DNA from: an uncultured Bacilli bacterium
GTDB lineage: Bacteria; Bacillota_I; Bacilli_A; RF39; UBA660
Length of the DNA stretch: 64,000 nt
Direction: 5' to 3'
Assembly (NCBI GenBank): GCA_947627975.1
Contig: CANQYB010000003.1
Coordinates: 3,588-67,587, forward strand
How positions within the stretch are numbered: position 1 is the first letter of the stretch; each line of letters opens with the position of its first letter. Below the pieces are notes generated by a model. The model did no database searches. It saw only the letters and a program-made list of their open reading frames with translations, and was not told the origin of the DNA. Both the position numbers and the translations under genes were made by a program. Positions 5,685 through 43,091 of this stretch are shown here, one piece after another.

Positions 5685-7259
5685 TTAAAATATGCCTTTT
5701 ATTTCCTCTTTTTTATTTAAATAAATTTTTTCATAATTTGGTACTTTAGGTAATCCTGGCATAGTTAAAATATCTCCAAGTAATACTACGATAAAAGAAG
5801 CACCAGAATAAATTTTTATATTCTTTACAAATATTTTATAATTTTTAGGATAACCTATTTTTTTGGCATCATCACTAATAGAATATTGAGTTTTTGCAAT
5901 ACAAATTGGCAAATTATTTAATTTTAACTCATTAATAATTTTTAGTTGCTTAGTTGCTTCTTTTGAATATTCAATCTCTTTAGCATGATAAATTTTATTA
6001 GCTAAAACTTTAATTTTTTCTTCAATACTATCATTTAATTTATATAGATATTTAAGTGAATTTTTATTTTTTACTTTTTCTATTACTTCTTTTGCAAGAT
6101 CTAAGGAACCCATATTACCATTTTTATAAGCTGTAGTAATTTTTACAGATATATTTTTATTTTTACAATAATTTTTAATTATTTCTATATCTTCATCTTT
6201 ATCATCTTCAAATTTATTTATAGCCACAATAATTGGTATATTAAATAGTTTTAAATTATCTAAATGTGCTTCTAAATTTTCCAATCCATTATAATTTATG
6301 GCTTTTGTAGTTACTACTAATACAATACAATTAGGTTTTAAATTGCCAACACGACATTTTATATTTAAAAATTTTTCTGCTCCTAAGTCACTCCCAAATC
6401 CTGCTTCAGTAACTACTATATCCGCAAGTTTTAATGCTGTCTTCGTAGCAATTAAACTATTACAACCAATTGAGATATTAGCAAAAGGTCCTCCATGAAT
6501 TAAGGCTGGAGTATTATAAAGTGTTTGAACTAAATTTGGTTTCATTGCATCTTTTAATAATACTAATAAAGAACCTGTTATATTTAAACTTTTAGCATAA
6601 ATTGGTTTAGAATCATAATCAAAACCTATTAAAATATTATCAAGTCTATTTTTTAAATCATTATAGTCTTTGGCAAGACATAAAATAGTCATAATTTCAC
6701 TAGCAGCAGTTATTTGAAAATGATCTTCTCTATTTTCTAAAGTTATATTTCTAAGTATTCTATCATTAATATCAAGGCACCTGTTAAAACAAATACTATC
6801 CTTATTAATTTTTAATTTATTTCCTTGAAAAATATGATTATCTATTGCTGAACATAGTAAATTATTAGCAGCAGTTATAGCATGGAAATCACCATTAAAA
6901 TGAAGATTTATATCTTCCATTGGAACTATTTGAGCATATCCTCCACCGGTAGCGCCTCCTTTAACTCCAAATACAGGACCCATAGATGGTTCACGAAGAG
7001 CTAAACATACTTTTTTCCCTAAATAATTTAATGAATCGGCAAGTCCAATGCTAACAGTTGTTTTTCCCTCACCCATTTTAGTAGGAGTTATAGCGGTTAC
7101 TAAAACAAGTTTTCCTTCTTTTTTGTTTTTTATTTCTTTGAAATTCACTTTTGCTTTATAATTTCCATATAACTCTAAATTATTAATATTTAGTTTTTCC
7201 CCTATATTAATAATATTTTCCTTTTTAAATTTTTTTGCAATTTCTATATCATTCATCAT
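5685..7259 (-). CDS. fhs: formate--tetrahydrofolate ligase
   Basis: 524 aa; PTKMGEGKTT P-loop and FTHFS-family conservation throughout. Confidence 0.9.
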   Translation of the reverse strand: MMNDIEIAKKFKKENIINIGEKLNINNLELYGNYKAKVNFKEIKNKKEGKLVLVTAITPTKMGEGKTTVSIGLADSLNYLGKKVCLALREPSMGPVFGVKGGATGGGYAQIVPMEDINLHFNGDFHAITAANNLLCSAIDNHIFQGNKLKINKDSICFNRCLDINDRILRNITLENREDHFQITAASEIMTILCLAKDYNDLKNRLDNILIGFDYDSKPIYAKSLNITGSLLVLLKDAMKPNLVQTLYNTPALIHGGPFANISIGCNSLIATKTALKLADIVVTEAGFGSDLGAEKFLNIKCRVGNLKPNCIVLVVTTKAINYNGLENLEAHLDNLKLFNIPIIVAINKFEDDKDEDIEIIKNYCKNKNISVKITTAYKNGNMGSLDLAKEVIEKVKNKNSLKYLYKLNDSIEEKIKVLANKIYHAKEIEYSKEATKQLKIINELKLNNLPICIAKTQYSISDDAKKIGYPKNYKIFVKNIKIYSGASFIVVLLGDILTMPGLPKVPNYEKIYLNKKEEIKGIF

Positions 7260-7314
7260 TTATCGCCTCTTTAATATTATTATAAACTTTTTTTATCTAT
7301 TAAAAAAGAGGATA

Positions 7315-8460
7315 TTAAATTTTAGATCCTCCAATTATTTGTTTTATGGAATTTAAAATTACATCTAAATAATTGTTTTTTTCAATATTTTTATCAACAG
7401 TTAAACTAATATTTTTATAAATTTTATTATTACTATCAACTATTTGAAGATTGCCAACTTTTTCTCCTTTTTTTACGGGAGCAACAATTTTTTTCGTATT
7501 TAATTTTAATTTGTATTTTTTGTCATTTTGAGAAATTTTTACTAATTTATTAACATCTTCAGTAGCTACTAAATTGGCTACTTTTTCTTTACCATGGTAC
7601 ACTTTTACTTTTCCAAGTATTTTATTTTTCTTTAAAATTTTTTGCAGTTTATAACTATTAAACCCATAAGATAATAAATTTTGAGTATCTTTTGTCCTTT
7701 CTTTACTATCTTTTTCATTCATTAATACTGATATTAAACGCATATTATTCCTTTTGGCAGTTGCTGTTAAACAATATCCTGCTTTTTCTGTATAACCAGT
7801 TTTTAACCCATCAACTGTTTTATCAAATCTTACTAGTTTATTAGTATTAACAAGCCAGATTTTTGTTCCATCGCTTTTAGTAAAATATTCCTCATAAATT
7901 TTTGAATATTTTAAAATAGTTTTATGTTTTATTAACTCTTTAGCTATTAATGCCATATCATATGCTGTTGAATAATGATTTTCCGAATCTAATCCATGAA
8001 CATTTTCAAAATGAGTATTTAAACATCCTATTTCTTTTGCTTTTTTATTCATTAATTTAACAAATGATTTTTCACTACCAGCAATTTTTTCAGCAAGAGC
8101 TACTACTGCATCGTTTGCACTAGCAACAGTTACTGCTTTAATTAAATCATTAACTTTTTCTTGAGTATTTGGCTGTAAAAAAATTTGACTACCTCCCATT
8201 GATGATGCATTTGTGGAAATATTTATTTTTTCAGAAAATGATAAATTTTTATTATCTATTTGTTCCATAATTAATATTAAACTCATCATTTTCGTCATAG
8301 AAGCAGGAGCTAATTTTTCATTTTCATTTTTTTTATAAATTATATCTCCAGTATCATAATTCATTAGTATTGCACTTTTTGCTGATACTTCAATATCTTC
8401 AGCTTTAATGTTTGGAATAAAAAATGTTATAAGAATTAAAAATAATAATATTTTTTTCAA
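7315..8460 (-). CDS. dacA: serine-type D-Ala-D-Ala carboxypeptidase (PBP5/DacA-like, S11)
   Basis: Signal peptide; SMTK (SxxK), SAND (SxN) and KTG motifs. Confidence 0.8.
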   Translation of the reverse strand: MKKILLFLILITFFIPNIKAEDIEVSAKSAILMNYDTGDIIYKKNENEKLAPASMTKMMSLILIMEQIDNKNLSFSEKINISTNASSMGGSQIFLQPNTQEKVNDLIKAVTVASANDAVVALAEKIAGSEKSFVKLMNKKAKEIGCLNTHFENVHGLDSENHYSTAYDMALIAKELIKHKTILKYSKIYEEYFTKSDGTKIWLVNTNKLVRFDKTVDGLKTGYTEKAGYCLTATAKRNNMRLISVLMNEKDSKERTKDTQNLLSYGFNSYKLQKILKKNKILGKVKVYHGKEKVANLVATEDVNKLVKISQNDKKYKLKLNTKKIVAPVKKGEKVGNLQIVDSNNKIYKNISLTVDKNIEKNNYLDVILNSIKQIIGGSKI

Positions 8461-8684
8461 TTAAACCACCTAATAAAAAATACGCTAAAAAAAAATTTAT
8501 ATTACTAGTATATTTTATTAATAATTTAGCATAATATAAATAGAGATAATTAAATAATTATCTCTTAACATAAATAGCGGAACTAATTTCTGCTAAAAAT
8601 TAATGTATATTTTATAAAAAAATATACATACTATTTACTGGAGAGTATTTTTCTCCATTATAGAAATAATTTATATTTCTATTT

Positions 8685-8716
8685 AAAAAAAGGTTCGTTA
8701 TTTTTGAACCTTTTTC
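8685..8716 (-). terminator. rho-independent terminator of pnp
   Basis: GGTTC-GTTATTTTT-GAACC hairpin followed by a T-run on the minus strand; it overlaps the pnp stop codon. Confidence 0.6.
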
Positions 8717-10872
8717 TTTTTATTGAAATTTTCAGAAACTAAAGCTTCTTTTCGAGATAAATTTAATCTACCTCGATTATCATAACCTAATGCTTTTACT
8801 ATAATTTCATCGCCCTCATTAACAATATCAGTAGTTTTTTCAACTCTTTTTTTGTCTAATTGAGATATATGAACTAAACCTTCACATCCAGGCCATAATT
8901 CAACAAAACAACCAAAATCTTCAACTTTTACTACTTTGCCATTATAATTTTTACCTATTTCAACTTCCCTTGCTATATCTTGAATCATTTTAGCTGTTTT
9001 TTCAATAACATTTATATCATTATGATATATAATTACTCTTCCATCATCTTCAAGATCTACTTTTACAGCATTTTTGTCATTAACAGATTTAACATTTGAT
9101 GAATCTAAGATTATTTTAGTAATCATATCTCCACCTTTACCAATAACATCCTTTATTTTATCTGGGTCAATATTAAATGTTTTAATTTTTGGAGCATATG
9201 GTGAAAGTTCTTTTCGTGGTTCACTAATTACATCTTCCATTACATCTAAAATTTTATTACGAGCTTTTTTAGCTTGAGCTAAAGCTTCTTTAAGTATTTT
9301 TTCATTAACACCTTTTATTTTGATATCCATTTGTAAAGCACAAATTCCTTTTCTTGTACCAGCAACTTTAAAATCCATATCCCCCATATGATCTTCAAGT
9401 CCTTGAATATCTGTTAAAATTGTATATTTTTTACCATCGCTTATAAGACCCATGGCAATTCCTGCAACTGGAGCTTTAATTGGCACTCCTGCTGCCATTA
9501 ATGAAAGACATCCAGCACAAATCGTAGCTTGAGAAGAAGAACCATTTGACTCTAAAATTTCTGATACAACTCTTATAGTATATGGAAATTCTTCCTCGCT
9601 AGGAATAACTTGTAATAATGCTCTTTCTCCTAAGGCACCATGACCAATTTCTCTTCTTCCTGGTGCACCATATCTTCCAATTTCGCCAACTGAAAAAGCA
9701 GGAAAATTATAATGTAACATAAATCTTTTAGTATCTTCAATTCCCAGTCCATCTAAAATTTGATGTTCATTAATGGCACCCAAAGTAGTTGTTGCAAGTG
9801 ATTGAGTTTGACCTCGAGTAAATACTGCTGATCCATGAGTTCTTGGAAGAATATCTATTTCAGCTTTTAAATCTCTTATTTCATCCATTTTTCGACCGTC
9901 AGGTCTTATTTTTTTATTTGTTATTAAATATCTTACTTGTTCTCCTTCAACTAAATCAACAATTTTTTTGACATTTTTTAAAATAGTTTCAATTTCTTCA
10001 TCATTTATATATATTTCTTTAAAATGTTCAATAGTCTCTTCTTTTACTCGATCAATTTCAGCATATTTTTCCAATTTATCTTTAATTTGAATAGCTTTTA
10101 GCATCAAATTTTCCGAATAATCTCTTACTTCTCGTTCTAGTTTTTCATCAATAATCGCAAGTTCTACTTCTACTTTAGGAACACCTATTTCTTTTATAAT
10201 CTTTTCTTGAATTTTACATAATTTTTGAATATATTTATGACCATACATTATAGCTTCTAACATAACTTTTTCTGAAACTTCTTTACTTCCAGATTCAACC
10301 ATGCAAATTGCATCTTTTGTTCCCGCTACTGTCAATTGTAAATCACTTTTTTCTAACTCAGCTGCTGTTGGATTAATAATAAATTCCTTATTAACTCTAG
10401 CAACTACAACTCCTGATACTGGTCCATCAAAAGGAATATTTGATATTCCAAGGGCAAGAGATGATGCAAATAAAGCAGTCATTTCTGGAGAATTATCTTG
10501 ATCTACTGATAGTACAGTATTAATTACCTGTACTTCATTTCTAAAGTTTTCATCAAACATTGGTCTAATTGGACGATCAATTAATCTAGCCGTTAGTGTA
10601 GCAGATTCTGAAGGTCTTCCTTCTCTTTTAATAAAACCTCCAGGTATTTTACCAACAGAATAAAATCTCTCTTGATATAAAACTGTTAAAGGGAAAAAAT
10701 CTTGAGTAACTGCATTTTTACCCATGACTGCTGCTGTTAAAATTACAGTATCTCCATATCTTACTAAAACAGCACCATTAGCTTGCTTTGCATATTCTCC
10801 ACTTTCAATTATAAGTTTTCTTCCTAAAAAATTTTCTTCAAATATTTTCTTTGCCATATATACCTCTTTCAT
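8698..10872 (-). CDS. pnp: polyribonucleotide nucleotidyltransferase (PNPase)
   Basis: 724 aa with two RNase PH domains plus KH and S1 domains; lies downstream of rpsO. Confidence 0.95.
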
Positions 10873-10874
10873 TT

Positions 10875-10900
10875 AAAAAAAAGACACTTTAAAAAGATAG
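10875..10900 (-). terminator. rpsO-pnp intergenic hairpin plus U-tract (attenuator/terminator)
   Basis: On the minus strand, GGCAC-TATCTTTTTAAA-GTGTC followed by TTTTTTTT, immediately upstream of the pnp ribosome-binding site. Confidence 0.5.
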
Positions 10901-10903
10901 TGC

Positions 10904-11173
10904 CTATTTTCTAATATTTAATTTTTTAATTAATTCTCTATATGCGATTATATCTTTAGCTTTTAGATAATCTAGTAAACTACGTCTTTTACCAACCATT
11001 TTTAAAAGTCCTCTTTTTGAATGATAATCATGAATATGAACTTTTAAATGTTCAGTTAATTCATTAATTCTTTTAGTAAGAATAGCAATTTGAACTTCTG
11101 TAGAACCAGTGTTTTTAGAATCTTTAGAAAATTCTTTAACAATTTTTGCTTTTTCTTCTTTTGTTAATGCCAT
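10904..11173 (-). CDS. rpsO: 30S ribosomal protein S15
   Basis: 89 aa; typical S15 sequence ([23 protein letters not shown]). Confidence 0.95.
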
Positions 11174-11295
11174 AATTTTTTTCTCCCTTCATTTTTATAT
11201 CTGTTTAATCTTAGTATAAAACCGGGAATGATTTAAACCAAGAAAAAACGTCCTAATTAATTATATAAAATTTTTTAATAAATATCAACTATTTA

Positions 11296-11700
11296 TTACC
11301 ATTCTATGTCGCAGCCCTTAAATGTTAAGTTCTTTTTAAATTGACGTAAGGAAGTTTTTTTAACTTTTTGATTTTCAGCATAATATGGTTTTAAAGATTC
11401 ACTATCAATAAATAACATATCACTATATTCTGGATAAATTGATAATATTTTACCCTCATTATATGCTTTTAAGAAATTTTTATAAACTTTAAAAAGGTCT
11501 AAAATAGAGTTTATACTTTCTATATCAATATAATAATTCATACAATTATTTACATTTAATTTTATTAATATTGCTTTTTCTTTAACTAAATCTTCATCAT
11601 AATCAATATAAAAAGCATCATAATTACTTTCAAATGTATTATGTTCTTCATAATTTTTACATTTCATTATATTTCCTACAAAAAATTGATTAGTCTTCAT
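11296..11700 (-). CDS. hypothetical protein
   Basis: 134-aa ORF with no recognisable domain. Confidence 0.4.
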   Translation of the reverse strand: MKTNQFFVGNIMKCKNYEEHNTFESNYDAFYIDYDEDLVKEKAILIKLNVNNCMNYYIDIESINSILDLFKVYKNFLKAYNEGKILSIYPEYSDMLFIDSESLKPYYAENQKVKKTSLRQFKKNLTFKGCDIEW

Positions 11701-11761
11701 ATATTAATTCCTCCTTTTTACTTATTATAATTTATTTTTACTATAAGTCAAGAATTATTAA

Positions 11762-12388
11762 TTAGAATAATAAAGTAATTTTTTCAGCTTCTTTTTTTAT
11801 AATACCATCGTCAATCAAATTTTTTAATTCTCTCATCATAGCACTTCTATCAATACTTAAATAATCAGCCAGATCTGTATAAGTAAATGGTAAATAAAAA
11901 CTTTTTTTTAATTTTCTTGATGTCATTATTTGAAAATAGGATAATAATTTTTCTCTAATAGTTCTTTTAGTTAAAACTTCAATTCGATTGTTCATAACTA
12001 AAATTTTATCTGTATAAACAGAAAATAAAGCCTCAATAACCTTTTTATATTTAATGTCTTTTTGATAACATTTTAATATATCTTCATAATTAAAAATTAA
12101 AACTTCACACTTTTTTTTAGCTTCGACAAATAGTTCATTATTTGTATAAATAGTATTAAATACATCTCCAAAAAGATCTTTATCAAAGTATTTTTCTATA
12201 ATAGCTTTATTACCATTTATATCATACCTAATTAAATCAGCTTCTCCCTCTGTTAATAAAATATATTGTTGTCTTTTAGCAATATATGTTGTAATAATTT
12301 CCCCTTTCTTAAATACCTTTTTTTTTACAAAATTCATATTATTTAAAGAATCTTCCAAATAATATAGATTATTTAATATATCATTCAT
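11762..12388 (-). CDS. Crp/Fnr-family transcriptional regulator
   Basis: cNMP-binding-like beta-roll followed by a C-terminal Crp-type HTH (TYTDLADYLSIDRSAMMRELKNL). Confidence 0.75.
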   Translation of the reverse strand: MNDILNNLYYLEDSLNNMNFVKKKVFKKGEIITTYIAKRQQYILLTEGEADLIRYDINGNKAIIEKYFDKDLFGDVFNTIYTNNELFVEAKKKCEVLIFNYEDILKCYQKDIKYKKVIEALFSVYTDKILVMNNRIEVLTKRTIREKLLSYFQIMTSRKLKKSFYLPFTYTDLADYLSIDRSAMMRELKNLIDDGIIKKEAEKITLLF

Positions 12389-30518: not shown

Positions 30519-31511
30519 ATGAAAAAATATTTAGTTTATACAATTACTTTTATTATAATTTTAGCTCTAATTATAACATCAATTTTTTTGTTTAAACCTA
30601 AAGAAAAAAATGAAAAAAATAAAATTAAAACAATTAAAGTAGCAGAAGTAACTCACAGTATATTTTATGCGCCATTTTATGTTGCAATAGAAAATAATTA
30701 TTTTAAAGATGTAGGAATTGATATTGATTTAATTTTAACATCTGGTGCTGATAATGTAGCATCAGCAGTTTTATCGAAAGATGTAGAAATTGGTTTTGCT
30801 GGTCCTGAAAGTGCAATTTATGTATATAATGCTAAAAATAAAGATTATTTAAAAGTTTTTGCTGGACTTACTAAAAGAGATGGTCAATTTATAGTAAGTA
30901 GAAAAAAAATTAAAAACTTTAAACTTGATGATGTTAAAGGCCAAGAAGTTTTAGGAGGTAGAACTGGAGGAATGCCCCTTTTAAACTTTCAAAACGCTTT
31001 AAAAAATGAAAATATAAAAGAAAAAGATTTAAATATTAATACATCCGTAGATTTTGCTGATTTATCTAGCGCATTTATAGCTGGAACTGGTGATTTTGTA
31101 AATTTATTTGAACCAAATGCTACAAAATTAGAAAATGAGGGGTATGGCTATGTAGTAGCATCAGTTGGTAAATATTCAGGTGAAGTTCCATATACTGCAT
31201 TTTATGCCCAAAAAAGTTATATAAAAGATAATAAAAAATTAATAAATAATTTTAGAAAAGCTTTAAACAAAGGAATTAAATTTGTAGAAAATAATAGTAA
31301 TGAAAAAATTGCAAAAACAATTTTAAATCAATTTAAAACATCATCTTTAGATGAAGTTATACAAATTGTTGATAGATATAAAAAAGCTGATTCTTGGTTA
31401 AAAAATACCAAAATACCAAAAAAATATTTTGAAAATTTAGAAGATATTATGATTTCATCAGGAAAACTAAAAAATTATGTTAATTATAATGATTTAGTTA
31501 TTAATCAATAA
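30519..31511 (+). CDS. ABC transporter substrate-binding protein, NMT1/THI5-like (NitT/TauT family)
   Basis: Signal-anchor N-terminus and NMT1-like fold; the next gene starts at this gene's stop codon (ATGA-style overlap). Confidence 0.75.
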   Translation: MKKYLVYTITFIIILALIITSIFLFKPKEKNEKNKIKTIKVAEVTHSIFYAPFYVAIENNYFKDVGIDIDLILTSGADNVASAVLSKDVEIGFAGPESAIYVYNAKNKDYLKVFAGLTKRDGQFIVSRKKIKNFKLDDVKGQEVLGGRTGGMPLLNFQNALKNENIKEKDLNINTSVDFADLSSAFIAGTGDFVNLFEPNATKLENEGYGYVVASVGKYSGEVPYTAFYAQKSYIKDNKKLINNFRKALNKGIKFVENNSNEKIAKTILNQFKTSSLDEVIQIVDRYKKADSWLKNTKIPKKYFENLEDIMISSGKLKNYVNYNDLVINQ

Positions 31512-32122
31512 TGAAAAAAATTTTATCTATTAAAAATATTTCTAAAACTTATCATACAAATCAAGGAGAAATTAAAGCAATTGATAATATATCTTTAGAT
31601 ATAAATGAAGGAGAATTTATTGCAATAGTGGGAAGTTCTGGGTGTGGCAAAAGCACCCTTTTATCCATACTTGCAGATTTAGAAAAAGCATCATCTGGGA
31701 CTTACAAATTTTACAAAGACAATTTTAAAATAGGTTATATGTTACAAGTGGATGCTTTATTTCCATGGCTTACTATTTTAGAAAATTCAATATTAGGTTT
31801 AAAAATAAATCATAATGATTCCAAAAAAAATATCGATTATGTAAAAAAGATGTTAATTACATATGGGCTTAAAGATTTTATGAATAAATATCCAAGTGAG
31901 CTATCGGGTGGTATGCGTCAAAGAGTTGCTTTAATAAGAACACTAGCAATTAAACCAGATATTTTACTATTAGATGAAGCTTTTTCAGCATTAGATTATC
32001 AAACAAGATTAGCAGTTTCTGATGATGTGTATAAAATAATAAAAAAAGAAAATAAAACTACAATTATGGTAACTCATGACCTAGCTGAAGCTATATATAA
32101 AATAAACATAAATAATTATTGA
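31511..32122 (+). pseudogene. ABC transporter ATP-binding protein, N-terminal fragment (disrupted by an insertion after ...VTHDLAEAI)
   Basis: Walker A (GSSGCGKST), ABC signature (LSGGMRQR), Walker B (ILLLDEA) and H-loop (HD) are present. The sequence then diverges into eight out-of-family residues before a stop. The missing C-terminus is found at 35686-35860. Confidence 0.8.
32086..32096. repeat. left copy of the 11-bp direct repeat TGAAGCTATAT flanking the insertion
   Basis: An identical 11-mer recurs at 35686-35696. Joining the two flanks restores an uninterrupted ATPase reading frame (HDLAEAISLADKIIVL). Confidence 0.8.
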
Positions 32123-32151
32123 AATAAATTGGTACCTTATTATTTAAAGAC

Positions 32152-32284
32152 CATATTTTATAATAGAAAGGAGAACTATTATGAATTCTTATCAAAGAGC
32201 TTTAAATTATATAAAAAATAATCAAGGCAAATGTCCAACATGTTGTTGTAGTGTTGGTGGTATTGGACCAACTGGACCTACTGG
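32152..32284. repeat. IR-left: 133-bp perfect inverted repeat (ribosome-binding site plus the first 35 codons of the collagen-like gene)
   Basis: Identical to the reverse complement of 34363-34495. Confidence 0.85.
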
Positions 32285-33329
32285 ACCAATCGGAATTGAA
32301 GGATTACCAGGTCCAATGGGAATACCAGGTGATAATGGTCCAACAGGACCTACAGGTCCAACTGGGCCTCAAGGTGAAATAGGAATTACCCCAACTTTTA
32401 CTATTGGAAATGTTACTATTTCTGATGATGATAATTACGCTAGTGTAACTGATACAGGTAATAATTTGGAACATATTTTAAATTTTATTTTTCCAAAAGG
32501 TAGTAATGGGACTGCAGGTCCGACTGGGCCAACAGGTCCTGCTGGAACTAGTGTTACAATTTTAGGATCTTATGATACAGTTGAAAATTTAGAAGCCTCT
32601 CATCCTACTGGAAATTCTGGACAAAGCTATTTAGTTGGTGATAATTTATATGTTTGGTCTAATGAAAATGATAATTGGATTGATGTTGGGCAAATTAGAG
32701 GACCACAAGGAGTACAAGGAGAAATAGGGCCAACTGGAAATACTGGACCACAAGGTATACAAGGACCACAAGGTATTGAAGGAGATATTGGTCCAACTGG
32801 ACCAACTGGGGCAACTGGGCCTACTGGACCTGCTGGCATACAAGAAATAGGTGCTGCTTATTTTGTAACATTTAACAACAATTCAGATGATGGTTATATT
32901 ATTAATAGTAATGAAAGAATTCCTATTACAAGAAAAGAAGTTGACAATACTGATATGTGTATTTTAAATAGCGATAATACCATTAAATTTAATAAAGCTG
33001 GTGTTTATAAAGTAGATTTTATTTTAACAGCTTTTACAAAAACAAATTCTGAATTTGATAAAACTAATGATATAATAGCAATTGGTTTTAAAAAGACTAA
33101 TGAAAATATAGTATATGCTGGAGGAAGTTCTTGGTATGTGTCAGAAACAAATACTAAAATTATAGGTCAAGGTTTATTTATCATTTCAAATCCTGATACT
33201 GAAATGATGGAATTAGTAAATATGTCAAAAACTACTTTAAATTTAAATACACCTCTTTTAGATTATACAACATCTGATTCTTATTTTGTAAATCCCGTTT
33301 TAACAATAATAATTCAATATCTTGGATAA
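32181..33329 (+). CDS. collagen triple-helix repeat protein, BclA-like (interrupted G-X-Y runs plus a C-terminal globular domain)
   Basis: [27 protein letters not shown] leader, GPTGPTGP repeats, a non-collagen insert (TSVTILGSY...[11 protein letters not shown]), a second G-X-Y run and a C-terminal domain of about 150 aa. Confidence 0.8.
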
Positions 33330-33356
33330 AAAAATTAGTCTTTTTTAGACTAATTT
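33330..33356. terminator. bidirectional terminator between the convergent collagen-like genes
   Basis: AAAAATTAGTCT-TTTTT-AGACTAATTTTT palindrome. Confidence 0.6.
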
Positions 33357-34466
33357 TTATATATTTTCATCAATTTTCTTAAGACTTAAAGAAGCAGTAA
33401 CTCCTGGTCCCAAGTTTATAATTACATTATTTTCTGTAGCTGATATAACCATATCTAATACATCATCAGCCATTAAAGAAATAATTGTACTTCCATTAAA
33501 ACTAACATTTTCGTTAGGCATAATTTGTTTTACTATAACAGCAGATGGAATCATAACATTATTTTCTCTTATCATTAAACTAATTATGGCAGCCTTGCTA
33601 CCTGTAAAATTAATTGAATAATTTAATTCATATATTCCATCTTGTTCTAATTTAATAGAATTTATAGGAGAATCAATAATATTGATATTATCCATAACTT
33701 CAGTAAGTGGCACTTGTACCCAAGTTCCTGCAGCCATTGTATCTAAAGTTGCAGTTATATTGTTATATTTTCCACCATAGGCACTTAATAATGCTGTTCC
33801 AATTGGGCCTGTTGGTCCTGTTGGCCCTTCTATTCCTTGAATTCCTTGGGGTCCAGGTTCTCCAGGAATACCTTGTAACCCTTGTATTCCTTGTATTCCT
33901 TGGGGTCCTGGAGGTCCTTCTATCCCTTGAGGTCCTGTTGGGCCAATATCTCCTTGAGGTCCTTTTATAGTTCCAACGTTTATCCACTCATTTTTATTAT
34001 CAGACCACACGTATAAATCATCACCAACTAAATAAGCATCTCCTATGTTCCCTGTTAAATGTTCATCTAATAATTCATTTAAATTACTATAAGAACCCAT
34101 AATAGTTACGCTAGTTCCAGCAGGTCCTGTTGGGCCTATTTCTCCTTGTTCTCCTTGAGGACCCGTTTCACCTATTGGTCCTGGTACTCCTTGTAATCCC
34201 TGAATTCCTTGGGGACCTGTTGGCCCAATTTCTCCTTGTTCTCCCTGAATTCCTTGAGGACCCGTTTCTCCCATAGGTCCTGGTACTCCCTGAATTCCTT
34301 GAATACCTTGAGGTCCAGTTGGCCCTGTTTCACCTGTTGGTCCACCACTTGGGCCTGTTGGGCCAGTAGGTCCAGTTGGTCCAATACCACCAACACTACA
34401 ACAACATGTTGGACATTTGCCTTGATTATTTTTTATATAATTTAAAGCTCTTTGATAAGAATTCAT
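33357..34466 (-). CDS. collagen triple-helix repeat protein, BclA-like (paralog)
   Basis: Same 35-aa N-terminal leader, G-X-Y repeats (GPQGIQG), the same interrupting domain (TSVTIMGSY...[11 protein letters not shown]) and a distinct C-terminal domain. Confidence 0.8.
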
Positions 34467-34495
34467 AATAGTTCTCCTTTCTATTATAAAATATG
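34363..34495. repeat. IR-right: 133-bp perfect inverted repeat
   Basis: Reverse complement of 32152-32284. Confidence 0.85.
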
Positions 34496-34513: not shown

Positions 34514-35659
<1,146 letters not shown>

Positions 35660-35665
35660 TTAATT

Positions 35666-35860
35666 ATGCTTAATTTATACCTAAGTGAAGCTATATCTTT
35701 AGCAGATAAAATTATTGTTTTGTCACAAAGACCAAGTAAAATTAAAAAAATATATGAAATAAAACTTTCAAGTAAAAATAACCCAATAGATAAAAGAAAA
35801 GCAAAAGAATTTTCAACCTATTATGATTCAATATGGAAGGACTTAGATATAAATGTCTGA
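35666..35860 (+). pseudogene. ABC transporter ATP-binding protein, C-terminal fragment
   Basis: From 35686 the frame reads SEAISLADKIIVLSQRPSKIKKIYEI, the typical NitT/TauT ATPase C-terminus. It ends in an ATGTCTGA overlap with the permease start. Confidence 0.8.
35686..35696. repeat. right copy of the 11-bp direct repeat TGAAGCTATAT
   Basis: See the left copy. Confidence 0.8.
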
Positions 35861-40855: not shown

Positions 40856-41080
40856 TATTTTATTCCTTTCATTATTATTCCTTCATTATAATATTATAAT
40901 ATTTAAATCTAATTTTCAACTTCTAACTTAAAATTGTTGACATAACTTTTTTATATTAAATTTTATCTATATATTAAAAACTATTAATATTAACAAATAT
41001 AAAATAATTTATATATTCTAGGTTTTAATAAGCTACAAATATTTAATCAAATCATATTTTATATTAGAAAGGAGTAATAA

Positions 41081-41938
41081 ATGAATTCATATCAAAGAGC
41101 TTTAAATTATATTAAAAATAATCAAGGAAAATGTCCAACATGTTGTTGTAGTGTAGGAGGCGGAATTGGACCTACTGGACCAACTGGACCAACAGGTCCA
41201 AGTGGAGGACCTACTGGACCTACTGGACCTACTGGACCTACTGGACCTACTGGACCTACTGGACCTACTGGTATTCAAGGATTAATTGGACCAGTTGGAG
41301 CTACAGGAGCAACAGGACCTACTGGACCTACTGGACCTACTGGGCCTACAGGGCCAACAGGTGAAACGGGACCAGCTCCAACTCTTACAGTAGGTGATAC
41401 TACTACTGCTTTACCTGGTGATGAAGCAGCTGTTAATATAGCTCCAAACGGTGATGGAGAATATACATTAACATTTACTGTACCTCAAGGTCCAACTGGT
41501 GCTACTGGAAATGGTCTTGGTGCATATGGAGGATTATATGATACAACACAAAATGCCTACTCATTAACTGCAAATACACCTAGCCAAATAACTTTAGCAA
41601 CTCCAACTCCACTTTCTAATGTTACAACTGGAACTAATTCATTAAATATTAGTGAAGCTGGAACATATGAAATTACTTATGCAGCAAATGTTACTTCAAC
41701 TGATGCCGATACTATTACTTTTTCTGTTAGAAATAGTACTGAAGATATACCTGGAACATCTATTTCCAACACATTCCAAGCAGGTGGACAATATAATTAT
41801 AATGGAAGCATTATAACCGATTTATCTGAAGGTGATGAAATAGATATGGCTTTAGAATCAACTGATGCTGCCGCTGGTAATGTTAATAGTGCAAATTTAA
41901 GTGTTAAATTAATTAGTCCATCTACTATAGCTGAATAA
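41081..41938 (+). CDS. collagen triple-helix repeat protein, BclA-like (third, diverged paralog)
   Basis: Same [27 protein letters not shown] leader, a long (GPT)n run and a C-terminal globular domain. Confidence 0.8.
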
Positions 41939-41966
41939 AAACGAATAAAAATTCGTTTTTTTTCAA
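41939..41966 (+). terminator. rho-independent terminator
   Basis: AAAACGAAT-AAAA-ATTCGTTTT hairpin followed by a T-run. Confidence 0.7.
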
Positions 41967-42005
41967 TTTGTTTTTTCATATATTATAAAGAAAGAAGGTA
42001 TTAAT

Positions 42006-43091
42006 ATTAAAAAAATTTGTGTTTATGCCATATCAAAAAATGAAGAACAATTTGTAGAACGTTTTATGAAAACTGCAAATGAAGCAGATAAAGTATTTAT
42101 TTTAGATACTGGCTCAACTGATAATACAGTTTCTAAATTAAAAAAGTTAGGAGCTATCGTTAAAGAAAAAGAAATTAAACCATGGCGATTTGATGTTGCC
42201 AGAAATGAATCTTTAAAAATAATACCAGACGAATTTGACATATGTGTATGTTTAGATTTAGATGAAGTTATAATGCCTGGATGGAGACAAAAATTAGAAA
42301 AATTATGGGATAAAAATACTACTCGACTTCGTTATAACTATAATTGGCAATTGGATGAAAATGACAAACCAATAATAAATTTTTATATTGAAAAAATCCA
42401 TTTACGAAAAAATTATAAATGGACCCATCCTGTACATGAAGTTTTAACATATGAAAATAAAAATGAAGTAATTAAAACTACAAATGATATTACCGTTAAT
42501 CATTATCCTGATAATACTAAATCTCGTCAAACATATTTACCACTTTTAGAATTATCGGTAAAAGAAGATCCCGAAGATGATAGAAATATGCATTATTTAG
42601 GTCGTGAATACATGTATTACCAGAAATGGAATGAATGCATTGATACATTAATTAAACATCTAAATTTAAAAAATGCTACTTGGAAAGATGAAAGATGTGC
42701 ATCTATGCGATTTATTGCCAGAAGTTATATAAATTTAAAAAGATATGATGAAGCAAAAATGTGGTTAGATAAAGCAATGAAAGAAGCTCCCTATTTAAGA
42801 GATCCCTTTATGGAAAGAGCATTTTTAGAATATCGTTTAAATAATTGGAACGAAGTTGTAAAATATTGTAATAAAGCCCTAGATATTAAAACTCATACAA
42901 AAACATATATAAATGAATCTTTTAGTTGGGACTATTCACCATATGACTTACTTTCTGTTGCTTACTTTAACAAACAAGAATATGATCTTTCACTTTTTTA
43001 TGTCAATAAAGCCCTAGACATGGATAAAAATAATAAAAGATTAAAAGAAAATAAAGAGATTATTTTAAAAAGTTTAAAAACCGCTAACTAA
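42006..43091 (+). CDS. family-2 glycosyltransferase with C-terminal TPR repeats (start codon uncertain)
   Basis: The in-frame translation upstream of the first ATG (42066) reads KKICVYAISKNEEQFVERF, the canonical GT2 N-terminus. A ribosome-binding site (AAGAAGG) lies at 41991-41998. The likely start is ATT at 42006. The DxD region (CLDLDE) and TPR-like repeats follow. Confidence 0.65.
   Translation: MKKICVYAISKNEEQFVERFMKTANEADKVFILDTGSTDNTVSKLKKLGAIVKEKEIKPWRFDVARNESLKIIPDEFDICVCLDLDEVIMPGWRQKLEKLWDKNTTRLRYNYNWQLDENDKPIINFYIEKIHLRKNYKWTHPVHEVLTYENKNEVIKTTNDITVNHYPDNTKSRQTYLPLLELSVKEDPEDDRNMHYLGREYMYYQKWNECIDTLIKHLNLKNATWKDERCASMRFIARSYINLKRYDEAKMWLDKAMKEAPYLRDPFMERAFLEYRLNNWNEVVKYCNKALDIKTHTKTYINESFSWDYSPYDLLSVAYFNKQEYDLSLFYVNKALDMDKNNKRLKENKEIILKSLKTAN

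Follow-up and report, generated by a model that had tools for sequence, protein, structure and literature searches.

Collagen-like proteins with BclA-type heads and a cysteine-cluster leader, two of them carried by a small integrative cassette, in an uncultured gut bacterium

Fibres on the spore surface mediate adhesion, aggregation and interaction with the host. In BclA, the glycoprotein of the hairy nap on the exosporium of Bacillus anthracis and B. cereus (PF01391 and PF18573; structure 1wck), a short N-terminus is followed by a GPT-rich stalk and a trimeric C1q/TNF-like head, and it is established that trimerisation of this head nucleates the collagen helix. How fibres of this type are attached in Clostridia, which have no ExsFA/BxpB homologue, is an open question (PMC7333573). 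The BclA of Clostridium sporogenes enters very-high-molecular-weight complexes with the Cys-rich protein CsxA, but there is no ExsF homologue and its anchor is unknown (PMC7333573). L-BclA, the tip fibrillum of the L-type endospore appendage (ENA), has no exosporium leader, and its residues C13C14 have been proposed to couple it by disulfides into the Ena3A ring (PMC11362473); a collagen/C1q protein with five Cys and a CC motif has been proposed as the ruffle of the S-type appendage (PMC12357932). Here we describe three collagen-like genes, A, B and C, in a stretch of 64,000 nucleotides (hereafter, the window) of contig CANQYB010000003.1, from an uncultured Bacilli bacterium whose metagenome-assembled genome (G000; 1.06 Mb, 93.65% complete, ~23% GC) comes from rabbit gut. 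Two of these genes, A and B, lie on a 3600-bp element that interrupts the gene of an ABC transporter ATPase. On balance, we think it probable that A, B, C and a fourth paralog, D, are BclA-type collagen fibre proteins of the spore surface, that their host is an uncultured spore-former, and that A and B ride on an integrative cassette. The three genes of the window are the following.

32181..33329, + strand: gene A, collagen-like protein of 382 amino acids (aa); open reading frame (ORF) with Pfam Collagen
33357..34466, - strand: gene B, collagen-like protein of 369 aa; ORF with Pfam Collagen and BclA_C
41081..41938, + strand: gene C, collagen-like protein of 285 aa; GPT-rich stalk and BclA_C-like head

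A preliminary description of this DNA had listed these three ORFs, and they were recovered at the same coordinates, each with a common start of 27 residues that runs into Gly-X-Y repeats. The collagen region matches PF01391 in all three (E 6.7e-14 in A, 7.1e-22 in B and 3.1e-10 in C). Protein A consists of a leader, collagen, a small beta module, collagen, an insert module, collagen and a head with the BclA/C1q fold; in B, the leader is followed by the insert module with one collagen run on either side of it, and then by a BclA_C head. Gene C is the chromosomal copy, and its orthologue in the sister species (genome G001) lies at L064 2907-3851. The fourth paralog, D, is encoded on another contig in an ordinary chromosomal context (G000:C25:4962-6194, locus L086; 410 aa); its leader is related (MDSFENALKKIKCEQ...C), the insert module occurs twice in tandem, and the head resembles that of A. 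Searching with the C-terminal region of A alone matched only 13 other proteins, none of them named by its source. The resulting alignment of 14 members follows one plan, in which a Cys-bearing leader, collagen, an optional small beta module, collagen, the insert and a last collagen run lead to a head ending in IIQYLG. Read directly, the sequences of the collagen proteins have neither a hydrophobic signal peptide nor an LPXTG sorting signal, as would be expected of proteins assembled within the mother cell.

The heads are the part most directly comparable with BclA. The head of B reaches the Pfam family BclA_C (PF18573) with 38.1 bits for a cutoff of 38, and it is 29% identical to the head of C (E 4e-14). 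Neither resembles the head of A significantly in sequence, so the earlier statement that the C-terminal domains differ between paralogs holds. No Pfam family and no PDB sequence matched the C-terminus of A; searches of the heads and of the insert against PDB sequences returned nothing useful, and only the comparison of folds worked. An AlphaFold2 model of the A head, built on the 14-member alignment, has 12 strands (pLDDT 84.9, pTM 0.82). Its best Foldseek matches are the C-terminal domain of F-BclA (9h38, E 2e-8) and B. anthracis BclA (1wck, E 6e-7), with TM scores against the two of 0.69-0.71 by the length of the model and 0.81-0.82 by that of the target. The best VIA-align Z scores were 17.1 (9h38), 16.5 and 16.4 (1wck), the last structure superposing with a root-mean-square deviation (rmsd) of 2.2 Å over 134 residues, whereas Z was 13-14 against TNF/C1q proteins and 11-12.5 against phage receptor-binding domains of this fold. 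Modelled as a homotrimer, the A head scored 0.96, with 0.00 for the best control, and is thus predicted to trimerise; the mark used was reached by 20 of 30 proteins whose solved structure is a pair of one chain and by 1 of 23 whose solved structure is a single chain, a calibration that is only rough for a custom alignment and three copies. The C1q/TNF-like jelly-roll that the preliminary description had proposed to look for is therefore present, A being closest to F-BclA and BclA by fold and B reaching BclA_C. All three heads are of the BclA/C1q/TNF type: A by structure, B by its Pfam match, and C by a sub-threshold match together with its likeness to B.

At the other end of the proteins, the likeness to Bacillus BclA stops.

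32181..32261, + strand: leader of A, 27 codons; a short helix-like segment and a four-Cys cluster that abuts the first Gly-X-Y triplet

The 27-aa leader peptide is identical in A, B and C. It holds four Cys (C18, C21, C22 and C23), and not five as first reported, with C21-C22-C23 directly preceding the first Gly-X-Y triplet. Between A and B there are no differences over the 81 leader nucleotides. Six nucleotides differ between either of them and C, all at synonymous third positions, and C differs from its G001 orthologue at seven leader nucleotides, again all synonymous. As every one of these differences is synonymous, the codon comparison indicates that the leader peptide is under purifying selection and that its identity is not due to chance. 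A Cys stands just before the collagen run in 13 of the 14 A-type family members, and CC in about half of them; in other genera the residues before GPTGPT read ...SCCSM..., ...SCCF..., ...CCCC... or ...SCCV.... The matches to NCBIfam comprised no exosporium-leader model, only models of collagen adhesins that stayed well short of their cutoffs, and direct reading of the leader finds no proline-rich docking motif. The preliminary description was thus right to call it unlike the Bacillus BclA targeting peptide. In other genera, at L035 (G002:C28) and L032 (G015:C7), two or more collagen genes lie close together whose Cys-rich leaders are nearly identical and whose heads differ. To judge from such sequences, the combination of one leader with many heads recurs across the family.

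The cluster may staple the trimer by disulfides or anchor it to a Cys-rich spore layer, as we infer by analogy with the systems described above. A candidate for such a layer is a protein of 105 aa with 13 Cys and three CC motifs, but without a Pfam family, encoded at G000:C11:15197-15511 on the minus strand (L082 1195-1512). Of the 24 genomes of the family, 20 have it, among them every one of the 14 in which collagen was matched; the four without it have no collagen match either. This distribution is no more than suggestive of a partner of the leader or a component of coat or exosporium, because the related genomes are not independent and the protein may be a core coat protein. The collagen-like exosporium proteins BclA/BclB of C. 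sporogenes and C. botulinum group I and BclA1-3 of C. difficile are likewise found near glycosyltransferase and Cys-rich genes. They differ from the present case in that the 105-aa protein is the only Cys-rich candidate of spore type here, no search having been aimed at CsxA, and a Cys-cluster leader family is not reported for the BclA proteins of C. sporogenes, C. botulinum and C. difficile in the literature consulted on them.

By analogy, the closest precedent of the leader is the CC connector of L-BclA. This raises the alternative that the collagen proteins are tip fibrillae ('ruffles') of endospore appendages and that the CC leader docks covalently in the lumen of the ENA pilus. The design of L-BclA and of the S-ENA ruffle candidate AGE80398.1 matches well, since these also join collagen to a C1q/BclA_C head, have no exosporium leader and carry a Cys-rich N-terminus with CC (PMC11362473, PMC12357932); moreover, among all PDB chains, the A head is closest to that of the F-BclA tip fibrillum, 9h38. 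Against this, neither DUF3992 (PF13157) nor DUF4183 (PF13799) was matched at E <= 0.01 in the 93.65%-complete host genome, although the PF13157 search was equally silent in every control genome and its sensitivity is unproven. There is no ENA-like gene adjoining A, B, C or D and no ena cluster, no ExsL-like anchor was found, and the leader sequence is unrelated to that of L-BclA. The empty searches for ENA subunits lower the weight of the tip-fibrillum explanation, which we regard as unlikely.

The genomic context gives indirect support to a role on the spore. The genome encodes Spo0A (144 bits), SpoIVA (355 bits) and an uninterrupted sigK (317 bits; cutoff 298.65), and one and the same box precedes all three collagen genes of the window.

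32152..32160, + strand: CATATTTTA box ahead of A, preceded at a distance of 16 nt by AC (32134-32135); candidate sigma-K-type -10 element
34487..34495, - strand: CATATTTTA box upstream of B, same sequence as that of A
41053..41061, + strand: CATATTTTA box upstream of C, same box
42066..43091, + strand: GT2-TPR glycosyltransferase gene downstream of C; Pfam Glycos_transf_2 and TPR

The B. subtilis consensus for sigma-K promoters is AC-N16-17-CATAnnnTA. The arrangement AC-N16-CATATTTTA stands before each of the three genes, and in A and B CATATTTTA falls within 29 nt before the ATG that the two have in common. In the whole genome, CATAnnnTA occurs 12-28 nt before the ATG of 21 of the 668 ORFs preceded by a ribosome-binding site (RBS; 3.1%), and the stricter form with AC-N16/17 before only eight (1.2%). 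These eight are the three collagen genes and genes for a CotJB-domain protein, a LysM protein, the 105-aa protein with 13 Cys, a weakly CotO-like protein and the ABC binding protein. At the same RBS spacing, the box also precedes collagen genes of G001, G002, G012, G015, G016, G019, G020, G024 and L078, and D has a near-match, CATAAAATG, upstream. Late mother-cell transcription of the collagen genes from a promoter of sigma-K type may be inferred from this motif. A scan of the element for sigma-70 promoters and terminators was uninformative (24 sites, with 25.5 expected). A sporulation-type promoter for the ABC operon was also considered and rejected as support for a skin-like element: CATAnnnTA is found there in G000 and G001, but (A)ATATAATA or TATAAT, an ordinary -10, in G003, L077 and L081.

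Homologues of the GT2-TPR gene (53-95% identity) adjoin collagen genes in G001, G002, G009, G012, G016, G019 and G020, much as bcl and glycosyltransferase genes are clustered in B. anthracis and C. sporogenes (PMC7333573). The conservation of this linkage makes O-glycosylation of the GPT-rich stalk by the encoded enzyme probable. The listed start of the GT2-TPR protein is MKTANEADK, and the G001 orthologue starts 15 codons earlier at a GTG (MYAISKNEEQFVERFMKTAKEADK; window 41949-42066); on this comparison the true start probably lies upstream of 42066, perhaps at a non-canonical codon.

Genes A and B reside on a mobile element, which the preliminary description had missed, as it had the inverted repeat described below. 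Both are present around A and B, and the paralogy of the two genes has to be read differently in their light. The 3600-bp element holds three ORFs only: A, B and a large serine recombinase.

31511..32122, + strand: 5' part of the split ABC transporter ATPase gene, in native frame to 32095, then eight element codons and a stop; Pfam ABC_tran
32086..32096, + strand: attL core, left copy of the 11-bp direct repeat TGAAGCTATAT
35686..35696, + strand: attR core, right copy of TGAAGCTATAT, exactly 3600 bp from the left one
35696..35860, + strand: 3' part of the split ATPase gene (SLADKIIVLSQRP...), continuing the G001 sequence exactly
34514..35647, - strand: large serine recombinase, 377 aa, without the coiled-coil segment

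The 5' ORF of the ATPase ends in ...VTHDLAEAI+YKININNY, and the native sequence ...LSEAI+SLADKIIVLSQRP... resumes at 35696. In the sister species the ATPase is intact (249 aa, 95% identity) and reads ...THDLAEAISLADKIVVL... through the junction; its only collagen gene is the C orthologue, beside a glycosyltransferase gene. The element has thus entered, in frame, the codon (A/G)EA(I/M)-S of an ABC ATPase gene of ssuB/tauB type, and both integrated junctions are present in contigs of the source sample. A and B are the cargo of an integrative cassette and not ancestral chromosomal genes. The same sample holds a second contig, ~91% identical over the gene of the ABC binding protein (window 31124-31624), which means that a related strain or species co-occurs there.

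The recombinase has the domains Resolvase (PF00239, E 1e-40), Recombinase (PF07508, E 7e-21) and Zn_ribbon_recom (PF13408, E 8e-8), conserves the catalytic motif YIRVSTDEQ, and resembles the integrases of phrog_95 (E 4e-103) more than the invertases of phrog_125 (2.5e-43). In the alignment, it and the recombinase of G011 (356 aa) have ~95 residues fewer than relatives of 433-501 aa, the missing segment lying between the zinc ribbon and the C-terminal strand, in the place of the coiled-coil motif. Since a length class of ~360-385 aa recurs widely among database homologues, coiled-coil-less recombinases are, to judge by length, a natural short subfamily and not the product of a single truncation. 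Removal of the coiled coil makes a serine integrase weak but direction-blind (PMC5499577). Its loss here would fit a cassette without room for a directionality factor, and no candidate gene for a recombination directionality factor (RDF) was found in the 3.6-kb element.

The same ATPase codon also harbours cassettes in G003, G011, L078 and L081, from other genera; their recombinases are related (41-70% identity), their cargo differs.

L061 10175-14700: cassette of G011; cargo a 410-aa protein, a 169-aa protein and a sortase-like protein
L062 6090-9363: cassette of G003; cargo a 197-aa ORF
L081 5104-9836: cassette of L081; cargo PAP2 and an LtaS-like sulfatase
L078 (GCA_947627995.1) 6801-12101: cassette of L078; cargo A-type collagen, C-type collagen and GT2-TPR genes, all co-directional

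The short direct repeats of each cassette match its own host's version of the site. On sequence comparison, these elements look like a family of mini-elements sharing one docking site, and the GT2-TPR gene found next to chromosomal collagen genes also travels inside one of them, that of L078.

The two collagen genes of the cassette are convergent, with different heads, and bear a 138-nt inverted repeat exactly at their 5' ends.

32152..32289: left arm of the inverted repeat, containing the promoter box, the RBS and codons 1-36 of A
34358..34495: right arm, containing the promoter box, the RBS and codons 1-36 of B

The arms are 99% complementary, while the stretch is only 89-94% identical to C. 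Recent homogenisation of the arms follows from this; it came about either through gene conversion or through reciprocal exchange, and the latter would invert a segment of 2.1 kb. With a serine recombinase next to it, such an arrangement recalls inversion switches of the Gin, Hin or shufflon kind, in which the expressed head would alternate; the near-perfect arms, set against the lower identity to C, indeed imply ongoing exchange. Yet both arms are complete. Since a box, an RBS, an ATG and a leader are found in each, an inversion would have no consequence for regulation, and the repeat is probably not a regulatory switch. The recombinase is of integrase type and its att core lies at the ends of the element; looked for by eye, the core has no convincing match inside the repeat, so inversion driven by this enzyme is not favoured. 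The one contig that crosses an arm, record 22 of the Logan contigs of the independent sample X5, passes the right arm in the orientation of the window, the other contigs breaking at the repeat, and the collagen genes of the L078 cassette form no convergent pair. An inversion switch hence seems improbable to us, and we favour gene conversion as the process by which the two copies stay alike in promoter, RBS and leader, with selection acting for the sameness of promoter and leader. 'Skips' listed in the Logan contigs were set aside as candidates, their sides of 20-38 letters looking like artefacts of repeats or of foreign organisms.

The stalk provides a link to bacteriophages.

32547..32696, + strand: insert module of A, residues 123-172; small domain in the order strand, helix, three strands; model pLDDT 85-91
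33969..34118, - strand: insert module of B, residues 117-166; placed by alignment and by PHROG tail-protein matches that span it

The insert motif TSVTI(L/M)GSY...YLVGD(N/D)LYVWS...W(I/V)(D/N)VG is invariant or nearly so across the 14-member family. The insert had been described earlier as conserved in A and B, which it is, but with a length of ~55 aa, which is in fact ~50. Taken as a whole, the preliminary observation is partly confirmed, standing in its ORFs, leader and insert and failing in its Cys count and in this length. It did not mention a second small module, common to A and C, with the pattern (I/L)T(I/V)G...(L/I)xFx(I/V)P(K/Q)G. The best PDB match of the insert is 7chu_A, ORF18 of Geobacillus virus E2 (probability 0.99, rmsd 1.8 Å over 55 columns), and 36 predicted phage proteins in BFVD, of tail-fibre, baseplate or collagen type, resemble it at E <= 1e-3 and 23-40% identity. 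PHROG families of tail fibres and tail proteins match A and B with E down to 2e-42, also across the non-collagen insert. The insert is a module common to bacterial collagen fibres and phage fibres, and for some modules phage ancestry is real.

It may accordingly be asked whether A and B are tail-fibre genes of a decayed prophage, the recombinase being the integrase of that prophage and the likeness to BclA reflecting a common TNF-like receptor-binding fold. The PHROG and Geobacillus virus E2 matches, the relation of the recombinase to phrog_95 and the occurrence of TNF-like heads in phage receptor-binding proteins (8ke9, 9n6a) all speak for it, and phage tail fibres of phrog_819 and phrog_5073 resemble our proteins in having both collagen runs and the ~50-aa insert module. 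However, the element has no other phage gene, and its sister cassettes carry sortase-like, PAP2, LtaS-like and GT2 genes in place of virion genes. The leader, the RBS and the sporulation-type box are common to the chromosomal gene C, whose orthologue sits in the element-free sister genome. The preliminary description had named phage tail-fibre genes among the close homologues as the sign of a phage remnant; the close homologues of A (P0004 and P0005) are ordinary chromosomal genes with non-phage neighbours, as are C and D, and phage receptor-binding domains score lower against the A head than BclA and F-BclA do. Because the box, the glycosyltransferase link, the chromosomal homologues and the fold of the head point the same way, we favour a BclA-type spore fibre over a phage remnant, to which we give very little credence. 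The earlier reading as BclA-like spore fibres is upheld in part: the collagen, the C1q/TNF-type heads, Spo0A, SpoIVA and sigK, the box and the glycosyltransferase link support it, and it has to be amended for the insert, which is shared with phages.

Gene-intervening and integrative elements with large serine recombinases have precedents. With skin, SPbeta in spsM, gin in gerE and SCC with Ccr, our cassette shares a precise in-frame interruption, short end repeats, one terminal large serine recombinase and an intact target in a close relative; with gin and SCC it shares non-phage cargo. One could imagine, then, that it is excised in the mother cell to rebuild the ATPase and kept in the forespore. 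The in-frame split by a serine recombinase element in a spore-former, the mother-cell-type boxes of the cargo, the precedents of skin, SPbeta in spsM and the non-prophage gin element in gerE (PMC5595907, PMC4191935), and a coiled-coil-less enzyme that could excise without a directionality factor (PMC5499577) would all agree with such a role. But the host gene encodes an ATPase of nutrient type, not evidently specific to sporulation, and the box upstream of its operon is TATAAT-like and ordinary in relatives. Neither an RDF gene in the element nor an excised form in the Logan contigs was found. The cassette also differs from known gene-intervening elements in its size (3.6 kb and three genes, compared with 31 for gin; PMC5595907), in lacking a coiled coil, and in sharing its codon with differing envelope cargo in several genera. 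We hold a developmentally excised element to be highly doubtful. That the ATPase was split ancestrally in all relatives is already contradicted on sequence grounds, the gene of G001 being intact.

Several observations weigh against spore-surface fibres of BclA type on a mobile cassette. The canonical Bacillus exosporium leader and the ExsFA/BxpB docking motif are absent, and the Cys clusters of the leader could equally bind metal. No ENA subunit (DUF3992 or DUF4183) that might accept a CC connector was found in the host genome, with the PF13157 control silent. The BclA_C match of the C head, at 25.9 bits, is below threshold. The insert and many PHROG matches tie the stalk to phage tail fibres, and A and B sit on an integrase-bearing element. 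The promoter call comes down to a box of 9 nt in a genome of 23% GC, supported by related genomes that are not independent, and sigma-E and sigma-K boxes are hard to distinguish. Lastly, the recombinase may be inactive: neither an excised nor an inverted form was seen in Logan contigs, which are short, break at both arms of the inverted repeat and can resolve neither.

With these reservations, the BclA-type reading suggests a path from gene to fibre. The collagen genes would be transcribed late in the mother cell from the sigma-K-type promoter AC-N16-CATAnnnTA, and their products, having no signal peptide, would fold in the mother-cell cytoplasm. There the C1q/TNF-like head, as modelled for A, would trimerise and nucleate the collagen triple helix, the stalk being broken up by small folded beta modules of the phage-shared kind and, where GPT-rich, O-glycosylated by the linked GT2-TPR enzyme. 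The leader would place the Cys cluster at the N-terminal end of the helix, so that three chains contribute twelve Cys. These could staple the trimer and tie the fibre by disulfides to a Cys-rich outer layer of the spore, by analogy with L-BclA and with BclA and CsxA. Different heads on one leader would then provide alternative surface specificities. The cassette family may move spore-surface and envelope genes between strains, since cassettes at the same codon elsewhere carry other envelope genes, including collagen together with glycosyltransferase.

As in B. anthracis and B. cereus, a short N-terminus, a GPT-rich stalk and a C1q/TNF-like head are thus combined in a spore-forming host with a linked glycosyltransferase gene. 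Unlike BclA, our proteins have a helix and a four-Cys cluster in place of the exosporium leader and its docking motif, folded modules that break the stalk, heads only 13-16% identical to that of BclA, and two gene copies on a mobile cassette. What is new here is a kind of BclA in which a conserved Cys-cluster leader replaces the Bacillus leader and the stalk contains phage-shared modules. A leader with its Cys cluster at the N-terminal end of the helix, conserved throughout a family of uncultured gut spore-formers, yields a hypothesis that can be tested by mutation, namely that the cluster is a disulfide knot or a covalent anchor. Natural serine recombinases of ~370 aa that lack the coiled coil and use a core of 11-14 bp in a conserved gene may also merit attention as minimal site-specific recombinases. 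Cassettes of 3-4 kb that carry a glycosyltransferase gene and fibre genes differing in their heads suggest that surface properties of spores are exchanged horizontally in the gut. A bolder proposal, which we put forward tentatively and consider possible rather than likely, is that RDF-free mini-cassettes, driven by coiled-coil-less serine recombinases and using a single ATPase codon, shuttle collagen fibres with interchangeable C1q-like heads and their glycosyltransferase between strains and genera of gut Clostridia with small genomes, with the common Cys leader as a direct covalent anchor. If true, the outer specificity of the spore coat would be a horizontally exchangeable trait, and clostridia, which lack ExsFA, would attach their BclA-type fibres through the Cys-cluster leader, a direct covalent anchor of the kind that has long been sought.

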